Shown here: positions 3,957 through 47,661 of the stretch, piece by piece | How the letters are laid out: every line of letters begins with the position of its first letter | Position numbering within the stretch: position 1 is the stretch's first letter | Source: Escherichia coli | GTDB lineage: Bacteria; Pseudomonadota; Gammaproteobacteria; Enterobacterales; Enterobacteriaceae | Direction: 5' to 3' (one strand) | Assembly (NCBI RefSeq): GCF_041886205.1 | Contig: NZ_CP169029.1 | Length of the DNA: 64,000 nucleotides | Made by a program: the position numbers and the translations under genes | The notes under the pieces: generated by a model | Database searches by the model: none | What the model was told of the DNA's origin: nothing | Seen by the model: only the letters and a program-made list of their open reading frames with translations

Positions 3957-4029
3957 CTTAGGCTCCCTGTTTTATCGGGAAACAACTGCCCTGACGTTAA
4001 GGGTGATTCACTCAGAACGGAGTACAACA

Positions 4030-4980: not shown

Positions 4981-5032
4981 AAAATTGGGGATGAATTTTC
5001 ATCCCCGTTATCTCCAGCGTCAGGGAGGCTTT

Positions 5033-8483: not shown

Positions 8484-9632
8484 ATGGCTAACAGAATGAT
8501 TCTGAACGAAACGGCATGGTTTGGTCGGGGTGCTGTTGGGGCTTTAACCGATGAGGTGAAACGCCGTGGTTATCAGAAGGCGCTGATCGTCACCGATAAA
8601 ACGCTGGTGCAATGCGGCGTGGTGGCGAAAGTGACCGATAAGATGGATGCGGCAGGGCTGGCATGGGCGATTTACGACGGCGTAGTGCCCAACCCAACAA
8701 TTACTGTCGTCAAAGAAGGGCTCGGTGTATTCCAGAATAGCGGCGCGGATTACCTGATTGCTATTGGTGGTGGTTCTCCACAGGATACTTGTAAAGCGAT
8801 TGGTATTATCAGCAACAACCCGGAATTTGCCGATGTGCGTAGCCTGGAAGGACTTTCCCCGACCAATAAACCCAGTGTACCGATTCTGGCAATTCCCACC
8901 ACAGCAGGCACTGCGGCAGAAGTGACCATTAACTACGTGATCACTGACGAAGAAAAACGGCGCAAGTTTGTTTGCGTTGATCCGCATGATATCCCGCAGG
9001 TGGCGTTTATTGACGCTGACATGATGGATGGTATGCCTCCAGCGCTGAAAGCTGCGACGGGTGTCGATGCGCTCACTCATGCTATTGAGGGGTATATTAC
9101 CCGTGGCGCGTGGGCGCTAACCGATGCGCTGCACATTAAAGCGATTGAAATCATTGCTGGGGCGCTGCGAGGATCGGTTGCTGGTGATAAGGATGCCGGA
9201 GAAGAAATGGCGCTCGGGCAGTATGTTGCGGGTATGGGCTTCTCGAATGTTGGCTTAGGGTTGGTGCATGGTATGGCGCATCCACTGGGCGCGTTTTACA
9301 ACACTCCACACGGTGTTGCGAACGCCATCCTGTTACCGCATGTCATGCGCTATAACGCTGACTTTACCGGTGAGAAGTACCGCGATATCGCGCGCGTTAT
9401 GGGCGTGAAAGTGGAAGGTATGAGCCTGGAAGAGGCGCGTAATGCCGCTGTTGAAGCGGTGTTTGCTCTCAACCGTGATGTCGGTATTCCGCCACATTTG
9501 CGTGATGTTGGGGTACGCAAGGAAGACATTCCGGCACTGGCGCAGGCGGCACTGGATGATGTTTGTACCGGTGGCAACCCGCGTGAAGCAACGCTTGAGG
9601 ATATTGTAGAGCTTTACCATACCGCCTGGTAA
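8484..9632 (+). CDS. fucO: Lactaldehyde reductase (L-1,2-propanediol oxidoreductase)
   Basis: MANRMILNETAWFGRGAVGAL... iron-containing alcohol dehydrogenase; second ATG chosen to give the 382-aa form. Confidence 0.93.
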   Translation: MANRMILNETAWFGRGAVGALTDEVKRRGYQKALIVTDKTLVQCGVVAKVTDKMDAAGLAWAIYDGVVPNPTITVVKEGLGVFQNSGADYLIAIGGGSPQDTCKAIGIISNNPEFADVRSLEGLSPTNKPSVPILAIPTTAGTAAEVTINYVITDEEKRRKFVCVDPHDIPQVAFIDADMMDGMPPALKAATGVDALTHAIEGYITRGAWALTDALHIKAIEIIAGALRGSVAGDKDAGEEMALGQYVAGMGFSNVGLGLVHGMAHPLGAFYNTPHGVANAILLPHVMRYNADFTGEKYRDIARVMGVKVEGMSLEEARNAAVEAVFALNRDVGIPPHLRDVGVRKEDIPALAQAALDDVCTGGNPREATLEDIVELYHTAW

Positions 9633-9644
9633 ATGCGCTGATGT

Positions 9645-9690
9645 GATAATGCCGGATACGACGCTAGCCGCGTCTTATCCGGCATATAAG
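9645..9690. repeat. REP-type palindromic element between convergent fucO and xni
   Basis: GCCGGATACGACGCTAGCCGCGTCTTATCCGGC, characteristic REP sequence. Confidence 0.6.
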
Positions 9691-9736
9691 TGCATTAAAT
9701 TCAATGTGTTGATAATCGTTTGCATACGGCACGTCG

Positions 9737-10603
<867 letters not shown>

Positions 10604-11971
10604 TTAATCGCAGGCAACGATCTTCATTGCCAGGCCGCCGCGAGAGGTTTCGCGGTACTTGGCGTTCATATCTTTACCTGTTTCGTACATGGTTTCGATA
10701 ACTTTATCGAGGCAGACGCGCGGCTCGCTGGTACGGCGCAGCGCCATACGTGCGGCGTTCACCGCTTTTACTGCCGCAATGGCGTTACGCTCGATGCATG
10801 GCACCTGGACCTGTCCGGCGACCGGGTCACACGTCAGACCGAGGTTGTGCTCCATGGCGATTTCCGCCGCGATGCACACCTGCGCCGGGCTTGCGCCTAA
10901 TAGTTCTGCCAGACCAGCCGCCGCCATTGAGCACGCCACGCCAACTTCACCCTGGCAACCCACTTCAGCACCAGAAATCGACGCGTTCATCTTATAAAGA
11001 GAACCAATGGCGCTGGCTACCAGCAGGTAACGAGCCAGTGAGTTAGCGTTCACTTCGCGGATAAACTTATCGTAGTACGCCAGCACAGCCGGGATAATCC
11101 CGCACGCACCGTTAGTCGGCGCAGTCACCACGCGACCGCCAGCGGCGTTCTCTTCGTTCACTGCCAGTGCAAACATGTTGATCCAGTCAACAACCGCCAT
11201 CGGGTCAGTGGTGGTTTTATCCTGGCTGACCAGCATCCGGCGTAGTGCCGCAGCACGGCGTGGAACGCGCAGTTTGCCAGGCAACACGCCTTCGGTGGAA
11301 ATACCGCGCTCAATACCGCCACGCATGACTTCCCAGACGTTCGCCAGGTGCTGTTCCAGCTCTTCTTTGCTGTGCAGCGCCAGCTCGTTTTTCATCATCA
11401 GGCCAGAGAGTGACAGCCCGGTTTCCTGACAATGTTTTTGCAGATCGGCTGCTGAACTGTACGGATAAGGAACTTCAACCGGTGCGCTATCCTGCTGGCC
11501 AAAATGCTCTTCATCAACGATAAAGCCACCGCCAATAGAGTAGTAAGTCTGGCTGTAAACGACTTTATCGCCCGCCAGCGCGGTAATGCGCATACCGTTT
11601 TCATGCAGAGAAAGGTTGTCTGCATGGAAGTTCATGCACTGATCAACCGGGAACTCCACTTCATGCTGACCGTTTGCCAGCATCAGGCGACCATGAGTAT
11701 TCACATCCTGAATAAAACCGGGGATGGAATCGATATCCACGGTATCCGGCAGGTTACCCGCCAGGCCCATAATAATGGCGATATCAGTGTGGTGGCCTTT
11801 ACCAGTCAGAGAGAGCGAGCCGTACACGTCAACCACCACGCGGGTCACGTCTTTAAGCAGGTTACGGGCAATCAGATCGTCGGTAAATTGTTTACCCGCT
11901 TTCATTGGTCCAACGGTATGAGAACTGGAAGGGCCAATGCCGATTTTGAAAATATCGAATACGCTAATCAT
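10604..11971 (-). CDS. sdaB: L-serine dehydratase 2
   Basis: 455 aa, MISVFDIFKIGIGPSSSHTVGPM...; Fe-S serine dehydratase. Confidence 0.95.
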   Translation of the reverse strand: MISVFDIFKIGIGPSSSHTVGPMKAGKQFTDDLIARNLLKDVTRVVVDVYGSLSLTGKGHHTDIAIIMGLAGNLPDTVDIDSIPGFIQDVNTHGRLMLANGQHEVEFPVDQCMNFHADNLSLHENGMRITALAGDKVVYSQTYYSIGGGFIVDEEHFGQQDSAPVEVPYPYSSAADLQKHCQETGLSLSGLMMKNELALHSKEELEQHLANVWEVMRGGIERGISTEGVLPGKLRVPRRAAALRRMLVSQDKTTTDPMAVVDWINMFALAVNEENAAGGRVVTAPTNGACGIIPAVLAYYDKFIREVNANSLARYLLVASAIGSLYKMNASISGAEVGCQGEVGVACSMAAAGLAELLGASPAQVCIAAEIAMEHNLGLTCDPVAGQVQVPCIERNAIAAVKAVNAARMALRRTSEPRVCLDKVIETMYETGKDMNAKYRETSRGGLAMKIVACD

Positions 11972-12028
11972 AGGAAATACATCGCGTTAAAACGGAGGAA
12001 GCGCCGCCCGAAAGCGGCGCGAAAGGAC

Positions 12029-13318
12029 TTAGCTGAACAGAGAGTAGAAGATTGCGGAGATTGCAATCAGACCCATCACGACAACGAATACGTTGCTGAT
12101 GTGACCGCTGTACTTACGCATTGCCGGTACTTTCTGAATTGCGTACATCGGCATCAGGAACAGGATCATCGCGATGATTGGGCCGCCCAGGGTTTCAATC
12201 ATACCCAGGATGCTCGGGTTCAGGGTGGCAACAATCCAGGTCGTTACCAGCATGAACAGCGCAGTGATACGGTTCAGCTTGTTGATTTCGATAGACTTAC
12301 CTTTACCACGCAGAGATTTAATCACCATACCGTTGAAGCCTTCACGTGCGCCCAGGTAGTGGCCGAGGAAGGATTTGGTGATAGCGATAATCGCGATAAT
12401 CGGAGCCATCCACGCGATAACCGGTGCGTTAAAGTGGTTAGCCAGGTAAGACAGAATCGAGATGTTCTGCTCTTTAGCCGCAGCCAGGTCCGCCGGAGTC
12501 AGGCTCAGTACGCAGCTGAAGACGAAGAACATTACGGTCAGCACCATCATGATGTGTGCGAATGCCAGGATCTTCGAGCATTTCTGTTCTGCCATATCGC
12601 CGTACTCTTCACGCTTCGCAACGGCGAAAGAAGAGATGATCGGAGAGTGGTTGAACGAGAACACCATTACCGGAATTGCCAGCCACAGGGTCATCCACAG
12701 ACCGTTTCCGGTTGCAGATGCAGTGTCCAGAGACAGCGTTTCCAGTGCTGCGCCGTTCCACTGCGGGATGAGGTACAGAGCCAGCAGCATCAGTACGCCA
12801 ACAAACGGGAATACCAGAATACTCATCGCTTTAACGATCATCTGCTCACCGAAGCGAACGATGGTCATCATACCCACGATCAGGATCAGCGACAGAATCG
12901 CACGCGGCGGTGGCGTCATACCCAGCTGGTGAGACATGAAGCTTTCAACGGTATTGGTGATTGCCACGCTATAAACCAGCAGGATCGGGTAGATAGCGAA
13001 GAAGTAGAGCAGGGTAATCAGTTTACCTGCGCCAATACCAAAGTGTTCTTCTACAACCTCGGTGATGTCTTCGCCCGGGTTTTTACCAGACAGTACGAAG
13101 CGAGTCAGGCCGCGGTGAGCAAAAAACGTCATCGGGAACGCAAGGATAGCCATGATGATCAGCGGGATCATACCGCCAACACCGGCGTTGATTGGCAGGA
13201 ACAGCACGCCCGCGCCGATTGCCGTGCCGTAAAGGCCCAGCATCCACATGGTGTCTGTCTTGCGCCAGGCACTACGAGAGTCTTTCGACGCAATCGTGCT
13301 GGTTTGAGTCGTTTCCAT
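12029..13318 (-). CDS. sdaC: Serine:H+ symporter
   Basis: 429-aa polytopic membrane protein upstream of sdaB. Confidence 0.95.
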
Positions 13319-33591: not shown

Positions 33592-34905
<1,314 letters not shown>

Positions 34906-35282
34906 TCCTGTTCTTTAACTCTTAACGTAAAAACCGCTTCGGCGGCAATGCCGATCAGTTAAGGAGCGGTTGACTGATCCTTAAACTGCGGCACTATAAC
35001 GGCTTCCACTCCAGGGAGCCGTTTTCTTATGCCACTTCTCAATGATCTGTTCGCCGCATGAGCCTCAGCGCTGATGGCGAGGTCGGAGAAAAGGTCCTGT
35101 CGCGCAATGCCATTACTCAGGCCCGGCGACGGGTGGCACCGCGCCTCTGGAATGGCTCTTTCATCAGACGGCACAGATCCGGGGAGCAGAACATTACCCC
35201 AAAGATAGCTGGCGTGTATTACAGCCCTTTGTCGTGCACGGGGGACACCGGATAGCAGGAAGTCTGGGGTATATTGCTGGCC

Positions 35283-35370
35283 TACAATCTGATACGACGG
35301 AAAGCTACAAAGGCAGTAGAAAAGCATAAAAGAGTGCTGAAAGAAATCAGCTTCAAATTTGCCGTATCAG
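35283..35370. repeat. Direct repeat copy A flanking the PTS/porin module
   Basis: CTGATACGACGGAAAGCTACAAAGGCAGTAGAAAAGCATAAAAGAGTGCTGAAAGAAATCAGCTTCAAATTTGCCGTATCAG; similar copy at 41469-41554. Confidence 0.6.
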
Positions 35371-35566
35371 AAAGTAGATGAAATCAGACATTATCTAATA
35401 TTATATTTTGGTTAAAATAGATATCAGAATTTAGCTATCCAATCGGTTTAATAAAATGAACCCGATTAAGATTGCTATGTGCTGAATGTATTTCATTTAA
35501 ATATAAATTAAAAAGTCGCCAGCAAGCTTATTTAACAGAACCGATAAAATAAAAAATGATATAAAT

Positions 35567-36613
35567 TTAGAACCAAAATTCAAGACCGGCGCGGTAAAAA
35601 TAGTCATTACTTTCTGAATTATAGGCGTCAGTTCGACCAATACGGACATAAGGGAGAAAACCATTTTCCATATTCATCATTAACTGTAAAGACGTCACTT
35701 TATCGGCGGTGTCTTTCTGGGTGACATTGTCTATTTTATAATCATTATTTTTGGCATACCCTAGCTTAGCACCATAGATACCATGCCAGTATTCGCCAAT
35801 TAAACTATAGGCATCCTGGGTGCTTTTAACATGGGTAATAAGGTCGGTCGTTTGACCATTTTTATAGCCCGCGTAAAACCTCAGACCAAGATCTGTAATG
35901 GGTATCTCGAGGCCCAAAACATAACCAGAGGCATCCTCCAGATTGTCATTTAACGTGTCATCGGTCGGTTGAACTGATTTGTTGCGAGTTTCTTCATAAG
36001 CAACATGTACTTTCACTGTAGAGAACGGCGTCCAGGTTACCCGTGAGCTGTAAGTCGTCGATCCAGAAACCGTAGAATCATCGCGATTAACGCTGAGAAC
36101 CACATCAAATCCCCCATAGTCTTTTGTTGCAAGGCTACCGTCATAGCGCACCATATTCGACATGCGATTGCTTTGATGCCAATGAACGTCACCTCCCCAG
36201 TCAAAAACGCGACCGAGACCGGGGTTGGTATAAGGCCAGTCAATGATTTCGTATAACGCCCCCTTCATGCGGCCAAAGCGAAGTTTCCCATACTTACCTT
36301 CAAACCCCACAAAGGTATCAAACTTTCCCAGACCAGAGTCGTTGGCCTCATAACCAACATAACCACTTTCAATCTGGAATATAACATTTACACCTTCAGT
36401 TATTTCTTTGTTCCCGCGAAAACCAATATATGATTCGTTATCGAGAGTATAATCATAATTCCTTTCATTGGCCTGAGTGGTAAAAATGGACATGGCTAAT
36501 TTACCATAGATTTCCAGGTTAAAATCTTTTGGCCCTCCCACTTGCATTGCATTTACTATTGTAGGCATAGTCGTAAGCAAAGAAATGCAAATAATATTAC
36601 TTGTTTTATCCAT
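35567..36613 (-). CDS. Outer-membrane porin (OmpC/OmpF-type general porin family), PTS-associated
   Basis: 348 aa; signal peptide; N-terminal ...LEIYGKL... and C-terminal ...GLEFWF beta-barrel signature ending in Phe. Confidence 0.7.
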   Translation of the reverse strand: MDKTSNIICISLLTTMPTIVNAMQVGGPKDFNLEIYGKLAMSIFTTQANERNYDYTLDNESYIGFRGNKEITEGVNVIFQIESGYVGYEANDSGLGKFDTFVGFEGKYGKLRFGRMKGALYEIIDWPYTNPGLGRVFDWGGDVHWHQSNRMSNMVRYDGSLATKDYGGFDVVLSVNRDDSTVSGSTTYSSRVTWTPFSTVKVHVAYEETRNKSVQPTDDTLNDNLEDASGYVLGLEIPITDLGLRFYAGYKNGQTTDLITHVKSTQDAYSLIGEYWHGIYGAKLGYAKNNDYKIDNVTQKDTADKVTSLQLMMNMENGFLPYVRIGRTDAYNSESNDYFYRAGLEFWF

Positions 36614-36833
36614 AAGTTGCCCCAGTAATTTTATATCCGAAAAGAGTAAAACCCGCCTTCATGGAGGGCTGTATTCATTACGCCATGAAAGGGCGTATTA
36701 AAATCTTTAAAAAGAAGTCTTCTGCCAGTCCTGTGAGATTTAAATCCAAAGGCAATAAGACAGAGCCAAAACCAGTGGATGACCACGCCCATAGAACGTG
36801 GTTTTCAGTTGGCAATAAATATTGAAAATAGAA

Positions 36834-37691
36834 TTATTTAGTTCTATTGATAATGTCCAGTGAAGATATTATTTTCTCCACATTATCTCCCCGATTAATA
36901 AATAATAACGCATTGAATAAAACATCAACCATAAAACTTTGTGCAGCGGTAATCGTTGATGAATCTGACTGATAAGGATTTGACGTCCCACCCGTCAGTA
37001 AGACAACATCAGCGTACTGACTTAATGAGGAATGCTTTAGTTTACTAATAACAATAGTCATCGCCCCTTTCTCTTTCACTCTTCTTAACGCATCGACAAC
37101 ATCGCGCGTTTCACCAGAGTGTGAAATCGCAACCACCACATCCTTTTTCCCAACGTTGTTCGAATTTAAGGTCATGGTATGATTGTCGATCAGAGCATCG
37201 ACGTTTGCCATAATTCTCATGAATCGATATTTGGCATACAGGACGGATATGGCTGACATACCAATGCCGTAGAAATAAACCTGCCCCGCTTTGCTCAGAC
37301 CGTCAGCTGCACGCATTAGGGTCTGTTCCTCTTGCAGGGCAAGCGTTTCATTGATAACAACGTAATTATCATTAGCCAGCTGTTGTGCAATCCCTGTCAT
37401 GGAGTTCGTCTGCTCATCAAGAGAAATCACTTTTGATAACAATGTATCGTCTGTATCTGTTTCCAGGCGAAGAGTCGTCTTTAATTCTGAAAAGCCCTTG
37501 TATCCCAGCTTTTTACAAAACCGAATAATAGACGCCTCACCAACATTCATTGCATCCGCTAATTTTGCAATGCTCATATTGATGAATTGCATACGATTAT
37601 TTTTAATAAACTGGTAAATACGTATTTCAGTCTGGGTCAATTCATTAATTCTGGTGTTAATTAACGTGTTAAAGACGACTCGGGTTTTCAT
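36834..37691 (-). CDS. RpiR/MurR-family transcriptional regulator (HTH + SIS domain)
   Basis: 285 aa, N-terminal HTH (IAKLADAMNVGEASIIRFCKKLGYKGFSELK) and SIS sugar-phosphate binding domain. Confidence 0.8.
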   Translation of the reverse strand: MKTRVVFNTLINTRINELTQTEIRIYQFIKNNRMQFINMSIAKLADAMNVGEASIIRFCKKLGYKGFSELKTTLRLETDTDDTLLSKVISLDEQTNSMTGIAQQLANDNYVVINETLALQEEQTLMRAADGLSKAGQVYFYGIGMSAISVLYAKYRFMRIMANVDALIDNHTMTLNSNNVGKKDVVVAISHSGETRDVVDALRRVKEKGAMTIVISKLKHSSLSQYADVVLLTGGTSNPYQSDSSTITAAQSFMVDVLFNALLFINRGDNVEKIISSLDIINRTK

Positions 37692-37698
37692 TAAGTAC

Positions 37699-38004
37699 TC
37701 ACTCCATCTTTTTATAAACCTCTATCAATTCTGTCACAAGTTCACGGCAAAGCATACCTGTCATAAGGTGATCTTGGGCGTGAACCATCACCAGAGTGAT
37801 TTGCAGTTTACCTACCCCCTCATCCAGACCAATTAGCCGAGTCTGCACCTCGTGTGCCTGCCTGAAGGCATCGTCAGAAACCTTTAAAGAGGCTTCCGCT
37901 TCAGCAAAGCTCCCCGCTTTGGCGAACCTGAGCGCCTCCATGGCACAACTGCGACCTTCGCCAGCGGCGATAATCAGCGACATCACATCATTTTCATAGC
38001 TCAT
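37699..38004 (-). CDS. PTS lactose/cellobiose-family EIIA component
   Basis: 101-aa helical EIIA (ChbA/LacF-like). Confidence 0.8.
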   Translation of the reverse strand: MSYENDVMSLIIAAGEGRSCAMEALRFAKAGSFAEAEASLKVSDDAFRQAHEVQTRLIGLDEGVGKLQITLVMVHAQDHLMTGMLCRELVTELIEVYKKME

Positions 38005-38040
38005 TTAAATTATCTCGTGTTAGGTATCGGTGGATACGAT

Positions 38041-38352
38041 TCATTTTGATGAAATCAGATCAACGGCCTGTTGATACACTTTTTCACCATTCATAGCCCC
38101 ATACAGTAACGGGCTGATGGCCTCTGATTTCTTGCCATTCATTTCTGCCAGCTTTTGTATTTCCGTCAGCTTAAATCGAATCTGAGGCGCAACCAGTACG
38201 ACGTCATAATTCGCGATGACATCTTTCAGAACATCAACGCCGTGAGCTTCAATAACTGATTCATGGCCGACGGAATTGGCGTAATCTTTCATTCGCTTCA
38301 TTAACATTGAGGTAGACATTCCCGCAGCGCACACTAAAAGTATCTTATTCAT
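38041..38352 (-). CDS. PTS lactose/cellobiose-family EIIB component
   Basis: 103 aa, N-terminal MNKILLVCAAGMSTSMLM with active-site Cys. Confidence 0.85.
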   Translation of the reverse strand: MNKILLVCAAGMSTSMLMKRMKDYANSVGHESVIEAHGVDVLKDVIANYDVVLVAPQIRFKLTEIQKLAEMNGKKSEAISPLLYGAMNGEKVYQQAVDLISSK

Positions 38353-38376
38353 AGCAATTACCCGTCATTGATAAAA

Positions 38377-39921
38377 TTATGTCACAGTAATATGTAAACC
38401 ACTCATCCGCCGGAAAGGGGCGGAAATGGAAGTGATCGTAGGACTGCGGCCGTTAAAGCTATAGTGAATATTTTCCATCCAGGTCTTTTCGATTTCAGAC
38501 TTAATTTTATCGAACACCATCGTTTCCTTTTCTTCAAATGAGGAATAGCTCTGGCCAATTGAAGGTAAATATTCAAACTGAACAGGGAAGCGGACTTCGG
38601 TCTGGTAAGCCCAGTCCGATACCAGCCTTTCTTTTAAGAAACGTTCGATAGCGTCAGCATTATCGCCCATGGTCGAAAAGACAAGGTTCGCTATCCCCGT
38701 ACCTAACGAATTACACGTTGTGTTCCAGCCTGCGTAGCCCTTAATGGTATCGAGTGCGCCGGCTTTATCCAGCGCCCGAATAAGTTCAGTTTCACCGCCG
38801 TTTGACATCGCCACATCGATGACTACCACTGACACCTGCAAAGCTCTGCTGGCAATTTCTTTTGCATAGGTCACCAGGTCACGATGGGTGTAGTAAGTGA
38901 TATTTTTATACTTTGGCTTCCGCACACCGGTATGCAGGTTATAGCCATAGCTAATATCAAAAGCCTCCTGCATTATCTCACCGCACCCATTGATCGCTAA
39001 AACAGGCAGCGAGGCATCATTATCGACCAACGTTATACCCGACGCGGCTGCATACGAACGCAGTGAGTGTATAAAAGGACGATCTTCATAATTCGGGATA
39101 TAGGTTTTAAACAGTTCGTTTGAATAGAGTGTGGTGGCTATAAAATCCTTTTTCCTCATCGACAAATAGGCTTTGGTCAACAATGTGCATCCAGACTCAT
39201 CGGTGCCAGGATGAACAAACACCCGGTCCTGTACCCCAAGCAGGGATATCTTTTCGTAAATGCGTTCCTGATCCTGCATCGTAAAACCAAATTCCGCGGT
39301 ATCGTCCAGCGGGATTATCAGCTGATCGATAATCTTTTCATCAACGAGTTCTATCGCATTCTCAATGAGCTGCAGATTTTTACTTCTGCGCGACAGCCAG
39401 TCGTCAAAGGAAGCAGAATTAATAGCGGAACGATGTGCAAGCAGATGCGCTTTTTCGTCTTCGCTCAGCCCGACACGCTTCTCTTTGTCAGACAGATAAC
39501 CAACCTGAAAAATTGAATGCCCGATATGTGCATAGTAATCCGGTTCTTCTTCACTGGAATTATATTTTGGCGTACGTAGCACCAGTGAAGATGCATAAAT
39601 CTTAAGTGCCGGATAACTTTCTTTCAGTGTTTTAATTTTATTTAACCTTGCTATAAGCTCAGTTAATTCCATCTGATGAATACGCGCGGGAAAAAGTCCA
39701 CCGTAGAGATACATATCCAGGCTGATAATTAACGCATCGGAATCGGCACAGTGGCTGTTTATAAAGTCATCTACAGCCTGATGTGAAGCTGGTTGTTTTT
39801 TGTATCCTAAAATCTCTTTCGCTGGCATTTTTAACGAAATATTGCTGTCCATCGAGGCCAGAGAAATCAGGAAGTCATAGTTATAAGGTCGGATATCCAG
39901 AGGTATGCTAATTATATTCAT
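38377..39921 (-). CDS. Uncharacterised 514-aa protein inside the PTS operon (possibly DUF4127-like; family assignment tentative)
   Basis: Long ORF between IIC and IIB with 15-25 nt gaps; no signal peptide or TM segments evident; no glycoside hydrolase family 1 or 4 motifs recognised. Confidence 0.6.
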   Translation of the reverse strand: MNIISIPLDIRPYNYDFLISLASMDSNISLKMPAKEILGYKKQPASHQAVDDFINSHCADSDALIISLDMYLYGGLFPARIHQMELTELIARLNKIKTLKESYPALKIYASSLVLRTPKYNSSEEEPDYYAHIGHSIFQVGYLSDKEKRVGLSEDEKAHLLAHRSAINSASFDDWLSRRSKNLQLIENAIELVDEKIIDQLIIPLDDTAEFGFTMQDQERIYEKISLLGVQDRVFVHPGTDESGCTLLTKAYLSMRKKDFIATTLYSNELFKTYIPNYEDRPFIHSLRSYAAASGITLVDNDASLPVLAINGCGEIMQEAFDISYGYNLHTGVRKPKYKNITYYTHRDLVTYAKEIASRALQVSVVVIDVAMSNGGETELIRALDKAGALDTIKGYAGWNTTCNSLGTGIANLVFSTMGDNADAIERFLKERLVSDWAYQTEVRFPVQFEYLPSIGQSYSSFEEKETMVFDKIKSEIEKTWMENIHYSFNGRSPTITSISAPFRRMSGLHITVT

Positions 39922-39936
39922 GTGCTCTTTCTCTGA

Positions 39937-41259
39937 TTATTTCTGTTTATTCATGGCGAAAACAAATGGCAGATAAATGATAACCGACAAGCTGATTAAA
40001 AATACGGATAGCACCGCAGCTCTCCAGTCTCCTCCCGTAGCCAGGAAGGCGCTAATCACTGGTGGCGTTGTCCATGGCACAAGAACATATGTATGGTTAA
40101 TCAAATCCATTGCCGTCGCGGCATAAGCAATCACGATGCTGATAATCGGAGTGAATAAAAATGGTACAATTAGCACCGGGTTGAACATAATTGGCAAACC
40201 AAAAATGATGGGTTCATTTATGTTGAACAACATCCCAGGAGTTGCCAGACGAGTAATCGCACGATGCTCTGATTTTTTCGCTGCAATCCATAAAGCAATC
40301 AGTAAGCCGATTGTCTGGCCTCCGCCGCCCATAAATCCAAAGGCATCGATGAACGGTTTTGTGACGATATGTGGGATTTCAAGGCCAGCCTTAAACGCGG
40401 CAGTATTTTCCTGAATCGCCACCAGCAGGGTTGTCTCAGTAATAGGGTACATGATACTGGCACCATGGATCCCTGCCCACCATAATCCGTTTTGCGTCAA
40501 AAGTAGTCCTATTACTCCGCTCAGACCCTGTAAAATATTTTGCAGCGGAGCCTGAATCATCAGAGTAACGATTTCATGTATGTTTTTGTTGAAGAGACTG
40601 CTTAACGACCATGCAAAGAGACTCAGCAAGGTTAACACCAGGATCATCGGTATTAATACGTTAAAGCTCCTTGATACGGAGGGGGGAACTGAATCAGATA
40701 AAGTAATTTTCAATTTAGATGAGGCCGAAACTTTGCGAAAAAGTTCAGTGGAAATAAGCGCCACAAATATGCCTACAAACATACCAGACGCGCCACTTTC
40801 ATTGCCGCTGATTAGCCCCGAAACCTGAAAAACCTCGCCCGTCGGCGCTGTAACGGGAATGGTGACCGGGAACAAAACAAATAAACATGCCAGTGAGAAG
40901 ATGGCATACGTTATCCCATCCTCGCCATAGCTGTTGGCTAATCGATATGAAATCATCACCGTTGCCAGAAAGGCGAGAATATTCAGCGTTCCGTTATAGA
41001 CGCGGATGCCAATTTCCTGTAGGTGGCGAACCCATGCGCCTTCCAGCCCCAGAAAACCGACTAAACCGGATTCGCCGTTGAGCAATACATTATTTATTAA
41101 TATAAATAGAGACGCAGCAATAATTAAAGGCATGAGCGCGACAAATGATTCCCTCACTGCCGAAAGATGTCGCTGTCCTGAAAAATCGCCCGCCCAATTA
41201 GAGATCTTGTCAATGAAAACAAGACCACTCCCACTTTTAATTTTATTGATGAAATTCAT
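39937..41259 (-). CDS. PTS lactose/cellobiose-family EIIC permease
   Basis: 440-aa polytopic membrane protein, ChbC/CelB-like. Confidence 0.85.
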   Translation of the reverse strand: MNFINKIKSGSGLVFIDKISNWAGDFSGQRHLSAVRESFVALMPLIIAASLFILINNVLLNGESGLVGFLGLEGAWVRHLQEIGIRVYNGTLNILAFLATVMISYRLANSYGEDGITYAIFSLACLFVLFPVTIPVTAPTGEVFQVSGLISGNESGASGMFVGIFVALISTELFRKVSASSKLKITLSDSVPPSVSRSFNVLIPMILVLTLLSLFAWSLSSLFNKNIHEIVTLMIQAPLQNILQGLSGVIGLLLTQNGLWWAGIHGASIMYPITETTLLVAIQENTAAFKAGLEIPHIVTKPFIDAFGFMGGGGQTIGLLIALWIAAKKSEHRAITRLATPGMLFNINEPIIFGLPIMFNPVLIVPFLFTPIISIVIAYAATAMDLINHTYVLVPWTTPPVISAFLATGGDWRAAVLSVFLISLSVIIYLPFVFAMNKQK

Positions 41260-41468
41260 ATAAGAAAATCTCGCGCCCTAGATATTAGTTTCAGCGTATT
41301 TTATTTATCCCCTTTCGTAATACTGTTAGCTTTGTCACAAAACTCCAAAAATTCCAACTAAAATGATACTAAATGGAGTTTTTTTGGTTTTGTAATCTAC
41401 CGTTCTGGAGTCTGGTATTAACAATAAAAGCGGCTTTCGCAGGAGGATAAATCATCAGCATTTGTCCA

Positions 41469-41554
41469 GACAAGCTGATACGACGGGAAGCTATAAAGGT
41501 ACAGAAAAGCATAAAAGAGCGCCGTTAGAAATCAGCTTTAAATTTGCCTTTCAG
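41469..41554. repeat. Direct repeat copy B flanking the PTS/porin module
   Basis: CTGATACGACGGGAAGCTATAAAGGTACAGAAAAGCATAAAAGAGCGCCGTTAGAAATCAGCTTTAAATTTGCCTTTCAG; roughly 80-85% identical to copy A by eye. Confidence 0.6.
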
Positions 41555-41759
41555 TTTATACAACAGAAATGATAGTGCCGGGAAACACGTCGTCGCCGGG
41601 AATGCTCCCAAGAGACTGGAGTATCGGAGGGGAAACCTGGAAGCGCTGTTCATAACAAAACGCCCCGACCGTCAAGGCCGCGGGTGGTGAAGATATCAAA
41701 ACGTCCATGCTGTTCCGCTTAAGTGAACGGCATTGCGCTGCAGTGGGTTTTTTATGCCT

Positions 41760-42584
41760 TCAAAGTAGTAGCGGTAGGGTCGCACTCGCCGTTTGCTGGC
41801 TCACATCGTTGTACTTTTCATCCAGTCCAAACAGCGACGTGGTGAGCAGTTCCACCAACAGCATGACACCAACCTTGGCGTTTAGCGCGCCAGCACTCAA
41901 CGGACCTTCTGGTTTGGCTGCGACCAGTTGAATATCACTCAGCGAAGCCAGCGGACTATGCGGTGTATTACTCAGCGCCAGTATGCGTACACCTTGCTTA
42001 CGCGCCAGTTTAACCACATGCAGCAGATCGCGTGTGGAGCCTGAACTGGATATTGCCACTACCAGCGTGTCTTTGCTTAGCGTTGTAGCGTTCATAGCAG
42101 CACGGTGCATGTCGCTGAACAATTGCGCGGGTTTGCCGAGGCGCAGGAGTTTGTAATGTAAATACTCTCCCAGAATAGCGCTGGCCGCTACGCCATAAAT
42201 TTGTACCGACTGAGCCTGATGCAGCGCCAGAGCGGCTGCTTCCAGTAATGTTCTGTCGAGTAATTTTGCCGTGTCCTGCAGCGCTTGCACGGATTCATTG
42301 ACGACATTGTCAATCTCATCACCGCTGCGCTCTACCAGCTCTCCTTGCCGGAGATCGAGTGCCAGCGCCATCTTAAATTCGTTATAGCCCTTACACCCCA
42401 GCGTACGGCACAGACGTGTGACGCTCGCCTCGCTGGTGTCGCTTTCACGCGCCAGTTCGGTAATCGTCAGGTAGACCACTCTTGCCGGATCGCTAAGCAC
42501 AAACTCTCCCAGCTTCTGTTGAGTTCGACTATATCCATCAACGCTCTGGCGCAATCTCAGCAGTAGGTTTTCATTTTCTGACAT
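41760..42584 (-). CDS. RpiR/MurR-family transcriptional regulator (second copy)
   Basis: 274 aa, HTH + SIS domain; divergent from the EIICB gene. Confidence 0.8.
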   Translation of the reverse strand: MSENENLLLRLRQSVDGYSRTQQKLGEFVLSDPARVVYLTITELARESDTSEASVTRLCRTLGCKGYNEFKMALALDLRQGELVERSGDEIDNVVNESVQALQDTAKLLDRTLLEAAALALHQAQSVQIYGVAASAILGEYLHYKLLRLGKPAQLFSDMHRAAMNATTLSKDTLVVAISSSGSTRDLLHVVKLARKQGVRILALSNTPHSPLASLSDIQLVAAKPEGPLSAGALNAKVGVMLLVELLTTSLFGLDEKYNDVSQQTASATLPLLL

Positions 42585-42749
42585 GCAAAATCCTTAATGC
42601 GTTTCTCTGCCGATAGTGTGGCGGAAAGTAGGGGAGAGATGCTAGTCATTTTAAAAAAGTATGATCGGTGCCCTGGTTTTTGATGGTAATTTTCATTTTT
42701 ATAATTAGTTGTGGTAAAAATTTTCATCAAAGAGCGGGGAGATGAAAAA

Positions 42750-44306
42750 ATGATGCAAATATTTAGCGGCGCTTCGTCAGGCGCATGGTTTGAAAAAGCG
42801 CAGCGGTTCGGCAAATCGTTCATGCTGCCGATTGCGGTATTGCCCGCAGCGGGGTTGTTGTTGGGGATTGGTGGGGCTCTGTCGAATCCCAATACGCTGA
42901 CGGCCTACCCATTCTTGAATGTCGACTGGCTGCAGGCAATTTTCACGATCATGACCAGCGCAGGTTCTATCGTGTTTGCCAACCTGTCGGTGCTTTTTGC
43001 GGTTGGTGTTGCCGTGGGACTGGCGAAAACGGATAAAGGCACGGCGGGCCTTGCGGCATTGCTGGCTTTTCTGGTGATGAATGCCACCATCAATGCTTTG
43101 TTAACGCTCAACGGAACGTTGGCGCACGAAAATCCAGGTGCTGTGGGCCAAGGGATGACGCTGGGCATTCAGACGCTGGAAACGGGCGTTTTTGGCGGGG
43201 TCGTGATTGGTCTGGTCACCTGCGCACTGCATAACCGTTTCAATAAAGTCTCACTCCCTCAGTTTCTTGGCTTTTTCAGTGGTTCGCGTTTTGTACCGAT
43301 TATCAGTTCGCTTGCCGCGATTGTAGTGGGGGTGATCATGACGGTGGTATGGCCGCATTTCCAGAAGCTCATTTTTGGACTGGGCGGTCTGGTGGATGCG
43401 ACGGGCTATCTGGGGACGCTACTGTATGGTTTCATTCTGCGTATGCTTGGCCCACTGGGTTTACACCATATCTTTTATTTGCCGTTCTGGACAACAGCGC
43501 TGGGAGGGAGCGAAATCGTCAACGGTCAACTGGTCGAAGGCACCCAGCGTATTTTCTTTGCCCAACTTGCCGATCCGAATACGCAGCAGTTTTATGCCGG
43601 TACCTCGCGCTTTATGTCCGGGCGCTTTATCACCATGATGTTTGGCCTGCTTGGCGCATGCCTCGCGATGTACCACACGGCAAAACCGGAGAAGAGAAAG
43701 CTTGTCGCCGGACTGCTGTTGTCGGCGGCCCTGACTTCTTTCCTGACGGGCATCACTGAGCCTATTGAGTTCTCCTTCCTGTTTGTGGCTCCGGTGTTAT
43801 ATGTCATTCACGCCTTCTTCGATGGTCTGGCGTTTATGATGGCGCATATTTTACATATCACTATTGGGCAAACCTTTTCGGGTGGACTGATCGATTTCCT
43901 CCTCTTCGGCGTGCTACAGGGGGAAGCGAAAACCAACTGGATGTACGTCCCCTTGGTTGGGGTTCCGTGGTTCTTTCTTTACTACTTCACCTTCCGTTAT
44001 TTGATTAACCGTTTTAACTGGCTGACGCCCGGGCGCGAGAACACAGCCCAGGTGGAGTCCGGTCTGCCTCAGAGCGAACGCGCAGCGGCAGTCATCGCCG
44101 GACTGGGAGGCAAAGAGAATCTGGAAGAGGTGGACTGTTGCGCCACACGCTTACGCGTGACGGTGAAAGAGAGCAGCAAGGTAGATGAAGCTGCGCTGAA
44201 AGCGACCGGAGCGCGTGGCGTAATTATTCGCGGCAACGGTGTTCAGGTGATTTATGGCCCGCATGTCACCATAATTAAAAATGAAGTCGAAGAGATCTTA
44301 TCATGA
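42750..44306 (+). CDS. PTS glucose/N-acetylglucosamine-family EIICB component
   Basis: 518 aa; N-terminal polytopic EIIC, C-terminal EIIB with CATRLR phospho-Cys motif; ATG 42750 with GGGGAG RBS (ORF track starts at GTG 42711). Confidence 0.8.
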
Positions 44307-44995
44307 TGAAAACTGTACTGGATTCCCTGAAAGGTAAACTAATTGTCTCCTGCCAGGCGCTGGAAAATGAACCCCTGCACAGCCCGTTTATTATGTCGCG
44401 TATGGCGCTGGCGGCAGCGCAGGGCGGTGCGGCAGGTATCCGTGCTAACAGCGTGGTAGATATTCGCTCGATCAAAGAGAGCGTCTCCCTGCCGGTAATA
44501 GGGATTATCAAGCGTGATTATCCGGGCTGCGAGGTGTTTATTACGGCCACTTTGCAGGAAGTGGATGAGCTGATGACCGTTGAGCCGGAAATTATTGCTC
44601 TGGATGCGACAGCGCGCCCGCGCCCCGGTGGGCAAATGCTGGAAGAGCTGGTTATGCAAATCCGTGTCCGCTATCCGTCCGTACTGCTGATGGCGGATAT
44701 CGCCACCGTCGATGAGGCGGTAACAGCCGAGCGGCTGGGTTTTGACTGCGTGGGCACCACGCTCTATGGCTATACCGCGGACACTGCCGGGCATGTAATG
44801 GTGGATAACGACTGCGGTTTTTTACGTGAGGTGTTGGCGGCGGTCACAATACCGGTCGTGGCGGAAGGTAATATCGATACCCCGGAACGCGCCGCACGTT
44901 GCCTGGCATTAGGCGCGCATACCGTGGTGGTTGGAGGCGCTATCACGCGTCCGCAGCAGATAACGGCACGATTTGTCGCGGCGATCGCCTCGTAA
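44303..44995 (+). CDS. Putative N-acylmannosamine-6-phosphate 2-epimerase (NanE family)
   Basis: 230 aa, [14 protein letters not shown]... and ...GTTLYGYT... resemble NanE; start overlaps the EIICB stop. Confidence 0.65.
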
Positions 44996-45066
44996 AGCAT
45001 CGATGGGGCATGATACTTTGGCGGGGATCTGCGATAATTAACGTTTATCCCCATATTGAGAGCGCT

Positions 45067-45738
45067 ATGCAGTACCCGATTAACGAGATGTTCCAGACCC
45101 TGCAAGGTGAGGGTTACTTTACCGGCGTCCCCGCCATTTTTATTCGTTTACAGGGATGCCCGGTTGGCTGTGCCTGGTGCGACACCAAACACACCTGGGA
45201 AAAGCTTGAGGATCGGGAAGTCTCCCTTTTCAGCATTCTGGCGAAGACCAAAGAGAGTGATAAGTGGGGGGCGGCGAGCAGTGAAGACTTGCTGGCTGTC
45301 ATTGGTCGCCAGGGATACACCGCGCGGCATGTGGTGATTACGGGGGGGGAGCCTTGCATTCATGATTTGCTGCCACTGACTGACCTACTCGAAAAGAACG
45401 GTTTTAGCTGCCAGATCGAAACCAGTGGTACTCATGAAGTACGCTGCACACCGAATACCTGGGTTACCGTATCGCCAAAGCTGAACATGCGCGGCGGCTA
45501 TGAAGTGTTGTCACAGGCACTGGAGCGAGCCAACGAAATCAAGCATCCTGTGGGGCGCGTACGCGATATTGAAGCACTGGATGAACTACTGGCAACGCTG
45601 ACCGATGATAAACCGCGAGTCATTGCACTGCAGCCGATTAGCCAAAAGGATGATGCCACACGATTGTGCATTGAAACCTGTATTGCGCGTAATTGGCGTT
45701 TGTCGATGCAAACACATAAATATTTAAATATTGCCTAA
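45067..45738 (+). CDS. queE: 7-carboxy-7-deazaguanine synthase
   Basis: 223 aa from MQYPINEMFQTLQGEGYFTGVPAIFIRLQGCPVGCAWCDTKH (radical-SAM CxxxCxxC variant); ORF track start 44899 is an upstream extension. Confidence 0.9.
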   Translation: MQYPINEMFQTLQGEGYFTGVPAIFIRLQGCPVGCAWCDTKHTWEKLEDREVSLFSILAKTKESDKWGAASSEDLLAVIGRQGYTARHVVITGGEPCIHDLLPLTDLLEKNGFSCQIETSGTHEVRCTPNTWVTVSPKLNMRGGYEVLSQALERANEIKHPVGRVRDIEALDELLATLTDDKPRVIALQPISQKDDATRLCIETCIARNWRLSMQTHKYLNIA

Positions 45739-46077
45739 TTACACATTTATAAGCGTTATAAATGGGTGGAACTTGTAAAGAATTCCACTCATTTGTATTA
45801 TTTGTCGCCCCTGAAAACTCATCCATCTTGCCCATCCCGGACTAATCATTATCATTCTCTACAAATTCTGCGGCGTTAATTTTTCGCTGGAGTGAAAATT
45901 ATTGCGGCGAAGTTTGGTAGATTTTAGTTTGTATAGAGTTATTTTAAATATTTACCTTTTTAATCAAAAGATTAAGTGCTCTTTAACATAATGGATGTGT
46001 TGTTTGTGTGATACTGTAAAGTTGGTAGATTGTGACTGGCTTAAAAAATCATTAATTAATAATAGGTTATGTTTAGA
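45739..46077 (+). promoter_or_regulatory. AT-rich CRISPR leader region
   Basis: About 340 bp of AT-rich non-coding DNA directly upstream of the first repeat. Confidence 0.6.
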
Positions 46078-46350
46078 GAGTTCCCCGCGCCAGCGGGGAT
46101 AAACCGTTCGCTGGCAATCCACTCAGGAATTTCGGGAAGAGTTCCCCGCGCCAGCGGGGATAAACCGGGCAGTACCGACATGGACGGTCACCACGAGTTG
46201 AGTTCCCCGCGCCAGCGGGGATAAACCGTGTATAGCGCCAAAATTGACGAAAGACATGTTGAGTTCCCCGCGCCAGCGGGGATAAACCGGTTGTAGCTGA
46301 CAATGTAAATCATGGATTTACGAGTTCCCCGTGCCAGCGGGGATAACCAT
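46078..46350 (+). CRISPR. Type I-E CRISPR array: 5 repeats (last degenerate), 4 spacers of 32 nt
   Basis: 29-bp repeat GAGTTCCCCGCGCCAGCGGGGATAAACCG at 46078, 46139, 46200, 46261; degenerate GAGTTCCCCGTGCCAGCGGGGATAACCAT at 46322. Confidence 0.95.
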
Positions 46351-46360
46351 TCAGGTATGT

Positions 46361-46930
46361 TCAGGCCGGGCAGTTTCCCGCCCGGCCTTCCTCACTTACG
46401 CATTCGACCAGCTCTGGATCGAATCCGCATTCCCCATGCATCACTTCATACGATTTTTTCAGTATTACATCATTATGTTTGGTTAGGTCTTTGAAAATGC
46501 CTTTATTCATCGCGTCGTAGCGTTTGGCATTGCTCTCAATCGGTATAAAGATATCTTTCACGCGAACCATTTTGTCGACAGCCGTTGCGTAATCCGGGTA
46601 TAGTCCCAGACCTACCGCCGTATTAATCGCTGCCCCCAGACTTGCACAACCGTTAATGGCGTTACGTCGTGCCGGAAGGTTGAACATGTCGGCAAAAATC
46701 TGCATAAACAGATCGCTGTTCGAACCGCCGCCAGTAATGATCACATGCTTTGCAAAGTGATTCATTTCATTACGCATATTGTCGTAATTGTTCTTCAGCG
46801 TCAGAGCCACGCTTTCCAGTATCGAACGATATATCCATGCGTAACGCGCAAGCGCTGCCTGCAATACCGGCACCAATAATAATAATGTCGCAGTCATCTT
46901 CCGTGTCATACCCCAAATATCCAGACTCAA
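46361..46930 (-). pseudogene. ygcE: 3' remnant of an FGGY sugar kinase gene (ygcE-like), 5' part deleted
   Basis: C-terminal FGGY motifs (ARYAWIYRSILESVALTL..., IITGGGSNSDLFMQIFADMFNLPARR) in a 189-codon ORF; a full FGGY kinase is about 490 aa; N-terminal 30 residues look out of frame. Confidence 0.65.
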
Positions 46931-46980
46931 CTCCCTGACCGAGCCTTACTTAAGGGAAATTGACCGCCGACACACTCTTA

Positions 46981-47346
46981 TCATTCGCCGCGATAGATAC
47001 AACCTGCGGTGCAGGTTTCTTTTACCATCACCGCACTTAACAGCGGCACAACGGGTTTAACCTGATCCCAAATCCATTTTGCTAAAACTTCGCTGGTTGG
47101 GTTTTCCAGACCTGGAATATCATTGAGATAATGGTGATCGAGGCGCTCGTAGGTTGGCTTAAACGCCGCTTTCAGTTCAGCGAAATCGATAATCCAGCCC
47201 GTATGCGGATCGACTTCCCCGGTAATTTCCAGTCGCACCATAAAGGAATGCCCGTGCAGGCGACCACATTTATGCCCTTCCGGGACGTGTGGTAAGCGGT
47301 GAGCGGCTTCGAAGGTGAAATCTTTAAATAACGTGGTGGACATCAT
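46981..47346 (-). CDS. queD: 6-carboxy-5,6,7,8-tetrahydropterin synthase
   Basis: 121 aa from [34 protein letters not shown]; ORF track start 47430 is an upstream extension. Confidence 0.9.
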
Positions 47347-47661
47347 AATTTCTCTACAGGACGATAAAACCGCCGTAGAGTACCGGAAAGGCTGTTTTTT
47401 CGCATTATCTAAAACGACTTTGTTGCGCAAAATCGCTGATTTATCTTATTGATGGGCAATATTCATTTGTTTTTCATTAGGTTGGTTAATCTATTTTGTT
47501 GTTAAAGACTATTGCTAAAACAGGTTAGTCGATTTGGTTATTAGTTATCGCTATCCCGTCTTTAATCCACACCGTTCACCCCGTTAACCTTACCTTCTCT
47601 TCTGTTTTATGGGCGCTGACAGGGCGCAGAAACAGCTTTGCTTACTGGAACATAACGACGC

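Follow-up and report, generated by a model that had tools for sequence, protein, structure and literature searches.

A three-gene module at positions 41760-44995 of a 64,000-nucleotide stretch of the Escherichia coli chromosome (contig NZ_CP169029.1 of assembly GCF_041886205.1; hereafter the window) is probably a horizontally mobile cassette for the use of free N-acetylmannosamine (ManNAc). The module consists of three intact genes, which encode an RpiR-family regulator, a glucose-family EIICB permease of the phosphotransferase system (PTS) and the epimerase NanE. Long open reading frames (ORFs), very strong family matches and intact alleles place these genes far beyond chance. An earlier note on this DNA had described an accessory module with a divergent RpiR/MurR-type regulator, an EIICB of the glucose/N-acetylglucosamine (GlcNAc) family with a CATRLR motif, a NanE-family epimerase whose start overlaps the permease stop, and no EIIA, and all of these descriptions are borne out by the domain searches, alignments and genome surveys reported here. 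Its reading of the module as a PTS for an amino sugar holds for the parts that surround the transporter, namely the NanE enzyme, a regulator of the type that senses ManNAc-6-phosphate (ManNAc-6-P) and the conserved pairing of EIICB with NanE; from these we infer what the transporter itself carries.

In the pathway that we propose, phosphoryl groups would flow from phosphoenolpyruvate through EI, HPr and the chromosomal Crr (EIIA-Glc) to Cys464 of the EIIB domain, and EIIC would import ManNAc and release ManNAc-6-P in the cytoplasm. NanE, translationally coupled to EIICB, would epimerise ManNAc-6-P at C2 to GlcNAc-6-P, which housekeeping NagA and NagB would convert to fructose-6-phosphate. The RpiR-family regulator would act by repression rather than activation, holding down both promoters in the 165-bp region between the divergent genes until binding of the inducer, ManNAc-6-P, to its SIS domain led to release. 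Induction by sialic acid via NanA and NanK would also be allowed, which fits what has been reported on nanE in Cronobacter (see below). Those E. coli glucose-family EIICB/EIIBC proteins that lack a IIA domain (PtsG, MalX, TreB, MurP) are served by Crr, and dependence of the module on such a trans-acting EIIA, as the earlier note had suggested, fits the content of the window: tblastn of the 64-kb window with a Crr query gave no significant match, and the sole EIIA in the vicinity, at 37699-38004, is a member of the lactose/cellobiose family (PF02255) and not EIIA-Glc.

The Epimerase and Its Junction with the Permease Gene

The nanE gene lies at 44306-44995 on the plus strand and encodes an N-acetylmannosamine-6-phosphate 2-epimerase of 229 aa (230 aa from an alternative ATG at 44303). 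Its product matches the NanE hidden Markov models (HMMs) PF04131 (228 bits against a cut-off of 27; E = 6.7e-68) and NF002231 (310 bits against 189), and is 61% identical to the NanE of Staphylococcus aureus, a kinetically characterised enzyme (E ~1e-76). All of the residues found important by mutagenesis in S. aureus (Gln11, Arg40, Lys63, Asp124, Glu180, and Arg208) are kept, as Q17, R46, K69, D131, E187, and R215, and Y156 corresponds to S. aureus Tyr149, which packs against the acetamide methyl. The catalytic Lys69 is encoded by nt 44510-44512. Both published NanE signature motifs (x-P-x-I-G-I-x-K-basic and V-G-x-A-x-T-R) are also present, as LPVIGIIKR and VGGAITR. On this evidence the module epimerase is a bona fide NanE with predicted EC 5.1.3.9 activity.

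The further best solved relatives of this enzyme are the NanE proteins of Fusobacterium and Clostridium perfringens. The Salmonella NanE structure 3Q58, which we take to represent the type of the enterobacterial nan operon, matches it at E = 1.5e-38. The module NanE is best read as a Bacillota-type enzyme and not as a duplicate of E. coli's own nanE. Its junction with the permease gene, read directly, is TCATGATGAAA: within the stop/start overlap ATGATG(A) (44303-44308, plus strand), the EIICB stop TGA at 44304-44306 overlaps either candidate ATG of nanE, by 4 nt or 1 nt, and translational coupling of the two genes is predicted.

The Divergent Regulator and Its Control Region

The nanR-like gene (41760-42584, minus strand) encodes an RpiR-family regulator of 274 aa with an N-terminal HTH_6 domain (Pfam, E = 1.7e-18) and a C-terminal SIS domain (E = 7e-21). 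It scores below every cut-off among the NCBIfam equivalogs (AlsR, HexR, MurR, and others). Its nearest solved relative by far is 4IVN (E = 1.8e-70, 240 bits, 45.6% identity over 272 aa, residues 3-273); the next solved RpiR structures are RccR/HexR-like (110 bits, E ~1e-30) and MurR (63 bits). 4IVN is the NanR of Vibrio vulnificus (VvNanR) crystallised with ManNAc-6-P, a repressor that is released by this sugar phosphate (PMC12713135, PMC9177960). The ligand pocket was compared with that of VvNanR at the level of conserved loops. Both the SIS phosphate loop, SSSGST, and the PEGPL loop are kept in the alignment of the regulator with 4IVN, where the Ser/Thr-rich phosphate loop AISSSGSTRDLLH of the regulator aligns with AVSSSGSTKEVIH of 4IVN; the role of the phosphate-loop residues has been described previously (PMC9177960, PMC11014249). 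We predict that the regulator is a ManNAc-6-P-responsive repressor of the V. vulnificus NanR type, and the position of NanR as its closest solved relative is an independent pointer to ManNAc-6-P as both pathway intermediate and inducer.

The divergent control region between the regulator and EIICB spans 165 bp (42585-42749). Its conservation was assessed from a profile over 63 distinct orthologous intergenic regions and from a six-sequence alignment that included Cronobacter and Aeromonas. In the 63-region profile, conserved blocks are found at 42615-42628 (AGTGTGGCGGAAAG), 42650-42667 (TTTAAAAAAGTATGATCG), 42680-42696 (TTGATGGTAATTTTCAT), and 42710-42729 (TGTGGTAAAAATTTTCATCA). The last two share AATTTTCAT, which thereby forms repeats 31 nt apart. 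These blocks are candidate operator or promoter elements. Visual inspection of the divergent region revealed no convincing CRP site.

Conservation of the Permease-Epimerase Pair

We surveyed the locus by scanning one genome per species for EIICB and then searching for partner genes by tblastn, which yielded 80 species-level loci. In 75 of these nanE lies directly downstream of EIICB, and in a further two (Anaerovibrio and Schwartzia) directly upstream; one locus is truncated, and two (Yersinia pekkanenii and Mitsuokella) have EIICB without nanE. The EIICB-NanE pairing is kept over three bacterial classes, in loci of Enterobacterales, Bacilli, and Negativicutes. The gammaproteobacterial carriers are Citrobacter, Enterobacter, Lelliottia, Raoultella, Leclercia, Cronobacter, Pantoea, Serratia, Rahnella, Hafnia, Sodalis, Arsenophonus, and Aeromonas, and those in Bacilli are Peribacillus, Neobacillus, Virgibacillus, Shouchella, Brochothrix, Vagococcus, and Seinonella. 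Between Enterobacterales and Bacillota/Negativicutes, EIICB is 69-76% and NanE 48-64% identical, unusually high values across phyla, which imply that the permease and epimerase genes passed between phyla relatively recently. Throughout Enterobacterales and in Aeromonas, an orthologue of NanR (57-97% identity) stands divergently upstream, and in Bacillota an unrelated RpiR paralogue (26-29% identity) lies downstream of the pair. The three-gene unit was also found on plasmids, including 0.2-0.9-Mb Pantoea megaplasmids, a 240-kb plasmid of Citrobacter werkmanii, and an 80-kb plasmid of Leclercia.

The immediate company of the pair is sparse. In Vagococcus, it stands alone between trmD and tdk, and in Anaerovibrio the gene order is nagB-nanE-EIICB. 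No nanA, nanK, or nanT gene lies beside the module in the Cronobacter, Aeromonas, Peribacillus, Vagococcus, and Anaerovibrio loci, nor within the annotated 9 kb on either side of it in an identical, fully annotated E. coli locus, and the module does not make up a canonical sialic acid (nan) cluster, in which nanE is accompanied by nanA and usually by nanK and a transporter. Such an arrangement is metabolically sensible only when the substrate of NanE arrives from the permease in phosphorylated form. NanE catalyses a reversible reaction and could in principle run anabolically, from GlcNAc-6-P to ManNAc-6-P, for a surface polysaccharide; however, no biosynthetic genes lie downstream beside the pair in any of about 90 loci, the Anaerovibrio pair is linked to the catabolic nagB, and an RpiR/SIS architecture is typical of catabolic sugar-phosphate sensing. 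We give this anabolic role almost no credence.

Also relevant to the catabolic reading is Cronobacter, where the loci encode a 229-aa NanE in the same module, between eno and queE. A 229-aa nanE located apart from nanAKT has been described genus-wide in Cronobacter, including in species that are unable to use sialic acid, and only C. sakazakii uses it (PMC3716653). The Cronobacter gene ESA_00529 would then be the nanE of the module.

The Substrate of the Permease

The permease gene (42750-44306, plus strand) encodes an EIICB of 518 aa with a predicted specificity for ManNAc, and its ATG is preceded by the Shine-Dalgarno sequence GGGGAG at 42736-42741. A GTG start at 42711, given in a mechanical ORF list, was discarded as unsupported by the homologues, which are 517-519 aa long. 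EIIC occupies about residues 21-359 (PTS_EIIC, E = 6.9e-91, 305 bits against a cut-off of 30.7) and EIIB about residues 447-479 (PTS_EIIB, E = 3.2e-15, 55.7 bits against 27), with no EIIA domain. The CATRLR motif is found at residues 464-469, with the phosphorylatable Cys464 at nt 44139-44141, and among the EIIC motifs are GITEPIEF, at residue 334, and LGLHH, which falls on the HH motif of PtsG. The alignment with the E. coli PtsG structures is end to end and covers residues 14-516 (E = 3e-107). In the loci retrieved for comparison, the EIICB gene lies at 10005-11561 (E. coli strain 10) and 4001-5557 (C. werkmanii L016).

Family membership does not settle what this protein carries, and the permease substrate is the weak point of the ManNAc model. 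EIICB scores far below the cut-offs of the PtsG, NagE, MalX, and MurP equivalogs (for the E. coli PtsG equivalog NF008301, 423 bits against 647). The closest HMM is TIGR02002, 'glucose-specific IIBC (glcB)', on which the window EIICB reaches 593.0 bits against a cut-off of 591.8, a margin of 1.2 bits. Orthologues about 76-99% identical to it span 535-597 bits on the same model (584.5, 588.0, 591.0, 559.5, 597.1, 568.3, and 535.1), and those that are 97-99% identical, with 584.5-591.0 bits, are named differently in RefSeq. The clade thus straddles the cut-off, which accounts for the inconsistent names given in RefSeq to a single orthologous group: 'ptsG' for the window allele, 'maltose/glucose IIC' for other E. 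coli, and 'EIIC' for Cronobacter. We rejected the 'ptsG' label as a cut-off artefact, given the margin of 1-2 bits and the score below the E. coli PtsG equivalog. The RefSeq name, inconsistent as it is within the group, tells nothing about specificity, and glucose is probably wrong.

Nevertheless, an alternative in which EIICB imports glucosamine (GlcN), glucose, or GlcNAc deserves consideration. NanE would then be merely co-regulated and would handle ManNAc-6-P derived from ManXYZ or from NanA and NanK. The proximity of EIICB to the glucose-specific model is consistent with this, as is the phenotype of SP1684 in Streptococcus pneumoniae, an EIIBC without IIA that adjoins nanE and for which a modest glucosamine phenotype only was reported (PMC3302838). 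Moreover, the orphan nanE of C. sakazakii must serve the sialic acid pathway of that species (PMC3716653). However, with the whole clade spread over both sides of the TIGR02002 cut-off the name is a threshold effect, and the scores on the E. coli PtsG and NagE equivalogs are low. Import of these sugars also gives no reason for the coupling to NanE in 77 of the 80 species, including genomes with the pair alone; GlcN-6-P and Glc-6-P are not NanE substrates, and a ManNAc-6-P sensor of the NanR type could not induce the operon on such sugars. On balance, we consider this alternative unlikely.

The substrate might also be a related N-acyl-mannosamine, such as N-glycolylmannosamine from N-glycolylneuraminic acid, mannosamine, or a ManNAc-containing fragment of a cell-wall polymer. 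The earlier note had likewise allowed for a derivative of ManNAc, and the module occurs commonly among bacteria of soil and plants (Pantoea, Rahnella, Peribacillus, Neobacillus, Virgibacillus), which have no contact with host sialic acids. Against it, NanE keeps the residue equivalent to Tyr149, the contact to the acetamide methyl, together with every other ManNAc-6-P contact, the solved structure nearest to the regulator has ManNAc-6-P bound, and no hydrolase or deacylase lies beside the pair in the Cronobacter, Aeromonas, Peribacillus, Vagococcus, and Anaerovibrio loci. Such a substrate seems to us quite improbable, and ManNAc itself is the predicted cargo of EIICB.

Several observations nevertheless weigh against the model of ManNAc uptake by an induced, NanR-repressed cassette. 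Besides the glucose-specific HMM match and the glucosamine phenotype of SP1684, the PTS of the Listeria ManNAc operon is dispensable for growth on ManNAc (PMC10667646), and the RpiR-type regulators of both Listeria and S. pneumoniae act as activators (PMC10667646; PMC12713135), so that repression is predicted here only from the closer V. vulnificus relative. A simple scan of the divergent region gave no sigma-70 consensus site. In the accessible literature we found no experiment on ManNAc transport by this EIICB clade, and no study of the enterobacterial cassette or of any ManNAc-specific glucose-family permease. Literature matches to 'nanP' were set aside, since they concern a permease of Shewanella and, in L. 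sakei, an unrelated protein that resembles antiporters, and Citrobacter, Edwardsiella, and the PTS are unmentioned in the paper of Almagro-Moreno and Boyd on nan evolution.

Origin of the Module in E. coli

The module was found in 481 of 5426 complete E. coli genomes (~9%), in line with the term accessory. The window allele occurs in 11-12 of the module-bearing genomes, and the copies in the remainder are 86-89% identical. In the window, the module is carried by a patch of Citrobacter-like DNA (41736-45216), the left edge of which abuts an IS4 insertion sequence (IS) remnant at 41475-41722. The interval 41736-45739 aligns continuously with C. werkmanii L016 at 94% nucleotide identity, against 77-81% in the flanking queD/cysJ. 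The right junction was mapped from the identity of 75-nt windows to Citrobacter and to E. coli BL21. Upstream of queE the DNA shares 97% identity with Citrobacter and 65% with BL21; the two hardly differ over the first ~150 nt of the gene (45067-45216); and from 45217 onward identity is 96-100% to BL21 and 75-88% to Citrobacter. The continuous alignment had raised the possibility that the whole of queE is Citrobacter-derived, which these values rule out: apart from its ambiguous first ~150 nt, the gene is ordinary E. coli sequence. The pattern indicates entry of the patch through homologous exchange, the crossover lying in the conserved 5' part of queE. The module in the window is thus of foreign, Citrobacter-like origin, and its donor was apparently Citrobacter.

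The queE gene follows directly after nanE in Citrobacter, Enterobacter, Lelliottia, Cronobacter, Hafnia, and Rahnella, which identifies the queE-adjacent position as the native site. Most other E. coli carriers hold an 89%-identical copy in an island at pheU (tRNA-Phe; strain 10, locus 8706-12585), again with an IS4 remnant and also with a 264-nt 5' fragment of queE of the Citrobacter type, 95.8% identical to a Citrobacter metagenome-assembled genome. The pheU-island cassette was evidently lifted from the native queE-adjacent site in a Citrobacter-like donor. Further settings in E. coli are an island in O104:H4, another in the avian pathogenic E. coli (APEC) strain O2-211, and ~135-kb plasmids from hens (86.4% identity). 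These different insertion places indicate several imports of the cassette. Past nanR, C. werkmanii carries a second, decayed version of the queE promoter and 5' coding region, 121 nt long and 76% identical (L016 2835-2953 against ~6279-6397), so that the Citrobacter cassette lies between direct repeats of queE 5' sequence. We speculate that these repeats are the scar of an ancient single-crossover integration of the Campbell type.

In an alternative view, the cassette rides along silently on genomic islands in E. coli, cryptic or decaying and without current function. The E. coli copies always lie beside IS remnants, pseudogenes, or island junctions, only 9% of genomes carry one, and queE is annotated as frameshifted in a carrier strain, 6EVA (locus 12568-13240). 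On the other hand, all three genes have the same, full length and no frameshifts in each of four other alleles examined (three from E. coli and one from C. werkmanii), the catalytic residues are intact, and conservation extends to the control region. Comparison of the window allele with these four gives a dN/dS of 0.03-0.12 over the three genes (0.07-0.11 for the regulator and 0.03-0.05 for EIICB), with dS up to 0.4-0.6, which points to strong purifying selection on all three. That the cassette is silent is therefore very improbable in our estimation, and we retain the reading of a functional unit for ManNAc use.

Surroundings of the Module

The window covers the E. coli chromosome segment pyrG-eno ... 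queE-queD-cysJIH, and the 3.6 kb around the module is 100% identical in E. coli strains 6EVA and wlxctx60. In laboratory E. coli strains eno is followed by ygcG, yqcG, and queE; in the window the eno-queE interval holds ~10 kb of extra DNA, of which the three-gene module is the right-hand third. The queE gene of the window is an intact ORF of 223 codons (45067-45738). A terminator scan found none between nanE and queE, and read-through into queE, or its co-transcription with the cassette, is therefore possible. No Rfam family was detected over 34000-47600, and hence no analogue of the Salmonella small RNA (sRNA) ManS at the gathering threshold.

The island that adjoins the module (~34900-41300), with IS4 end remnants at ~34935-35054 and 41475-41722, encodes a porin, a second RpiR regulator, PTS IIA, IIB, and IIC components of the lactose/cellobiose family, and a DUF4127 protein of 514 aa. 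It has a GC content of 42.6% (window, 50%) and occurs in only 9 of the 5426 complete E. coli genomes. Beyond queE, a remnant of a CRISPR (clustered regularly interspaced short palindromic repeats) array with a 61-nt period and about 2.5-5 units (46079-46351) is followed by a truncated ygcE (FGGY kinase) fragment at 46361-46930, which abuts queD. The yqcE-ygcN block is missing from the window relative to BL21, and in strain 6EVA, identical at this locus, cas3 downstream of cysH is degenerate.

Relation to Known Systems

The three protein families are already known and the genes are annotated in RefSeq; the function proposed here follows from context. In architecture, the closest system is murR-murQP of E. 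coli, whose logic the proposed pathway follows step by step. It also pairs a divergent RpiR-family regulator that senses a sugar 6-phosphate with a Crr-dependent glucose-family permease lacking EIIA, and in it one enzyme likewise turns an imported N-acetyl-hexosamine-6-phosphate derivative into GlcNAc-6-P. The ligand-binding domains of MurR and VvNanR are moreover superimposable (PMC9177960). However, the enzyme of the module is a TIM-barrel epimerase, NanE, and not the SIS etherase MurQ, the permease gene precedes the enzyme gene, and the predicted sugar is ManNAc rather than N-acetylmuramic acid. Both proteins score low on the respective models (regulator, 81 bits against a MurR cut-off of 408; permease, 35 bits against a MurP cut-off of 516). 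In sensing, the V. vulnificus NanR regulon is closest: VvNanR is the nearest solved homologue of the regulator over its full length, and it controls an operon with nanE. The Vibrio regulon, in contrast, comprises a complete sialic acid pathway with a tripartite ATP-independent periplasmic (TRAP) transporter, nanA, and nanK, while that of the module is predicted to contain only the PTS permease and nanE.

Similar gene combinations occur in Gram-positive bacteria. In S. pneumoniae, SP1684-SP1685 combines a glucose-family permease without EIIA, which we liken to the module EIICB by its architecture as known from description, with an adjoining nanE, under an RpiR-family NanR that binds ManNAc-6-P (PMC3302838, PMC12713135). 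The pneumococcal pair, however, sits in a large sialic acid regulon that also comprises a lyase, a kinase, and transporters of the ATP-binding cassette (ABC) type; NanR acts there as an activator, and the mutants showed the GlcN phenotype only. In Listeria monocytogenes, the lmo2795-nanE operon also has an RpiR regulator, PTS components, and a NanE that is needed for growth on ManNAc (PMC10667646), but it is an operon of seven genes, whose products include EIIA and EIIBC as separate proteins as well as an oxidoreductase, a HAD hydrolase, and a ROK protein.

Among enterobacteria, Salmonella enterica carries STM1127-STM1131, a horizontally acquired, ManNAc-inducible cluster apart from nanATEK, with a second NanE and its own repressor (PMC11745405). 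Its other proteins resemble those of the nan cluster, including an outer-membrane channel, and no PTS permease was described (PMC11745405); the repressor was described as an analogue of the nan cluster's NanR, which in E. coli is of the GntR type (PMC8012715). The NanE2 of this cluster (3IGS) is of the enterobacterial type and matches the module NanE at E = 2e-37, compared with 1e-76 for S. aureus NanE. The canonical E. coli NanE, encoded in nanATEK-yhcH, belongs to the same enzyme family and shares the predicted reaction, but the module NanE is Bacillota-type and unlinked to nanA, nanT, and nanK. The cassette is best regarded as an uncharacterised case of an RpiR-regulated PTS permease together with a sugar-phosphate-converting enzyme.

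Implications

ManNAc is the first product of sialic acid breakdown and also a building block of bacterial envelope polymers. E. coli K-12 makes poor use of it, depending on ManXYZ and on a NanE for which ManNAc is not an inducer (PMC10667646). If the proposed function is correct, the cassette would supply what K-12 lacks, namely a ManNAc-inducible NanE and a dedicated permease. In Salmonella, a dedicated ManNAc cluster matters for gut colonisation (PMC11745405).

A wider reading, which we offer tentatively and as a whole, would treat the EIICB clade as the first dedicated family of ManNAc-specific PTS permeases, forming with the Bacillota-type NanE a minimal two-gene unit that converts ManNAc to GlcNAc-6-P. 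The unit may have crossed between Bacillota, Negativicutes, and Enterobacterales, have been paired in Enterobacterales and Aeromonas with a Vibrio-like sensor of the NanR type, and have entered E. coli from Citrobacter on no fewer than three separate occasions. Bacteria of soil and plants that never come across sialic acid might then use it to scavenge ManNAc from bacterial envelope polymers rather than from host glycans. We hold this combination to be credible, and about as apt to fail in some part as to stand.

The general understanding of PTS biology would be unchanged, and the value of the finding lies in a testable functional prediction. It also exposes a systematic annotation problem, in that a single orthologue is named ptsG, maltose/glucose IIC, or EIIC on a margin of 1-2 bits. 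If true, the prediction would explain the 'orphan' nanE of Cronobacter and Citrobacter, and it would give a distinct nutrient niche to ~9% of E. coli, including O104:H4, APEC lineages, and strains with hen-associated plasmids.

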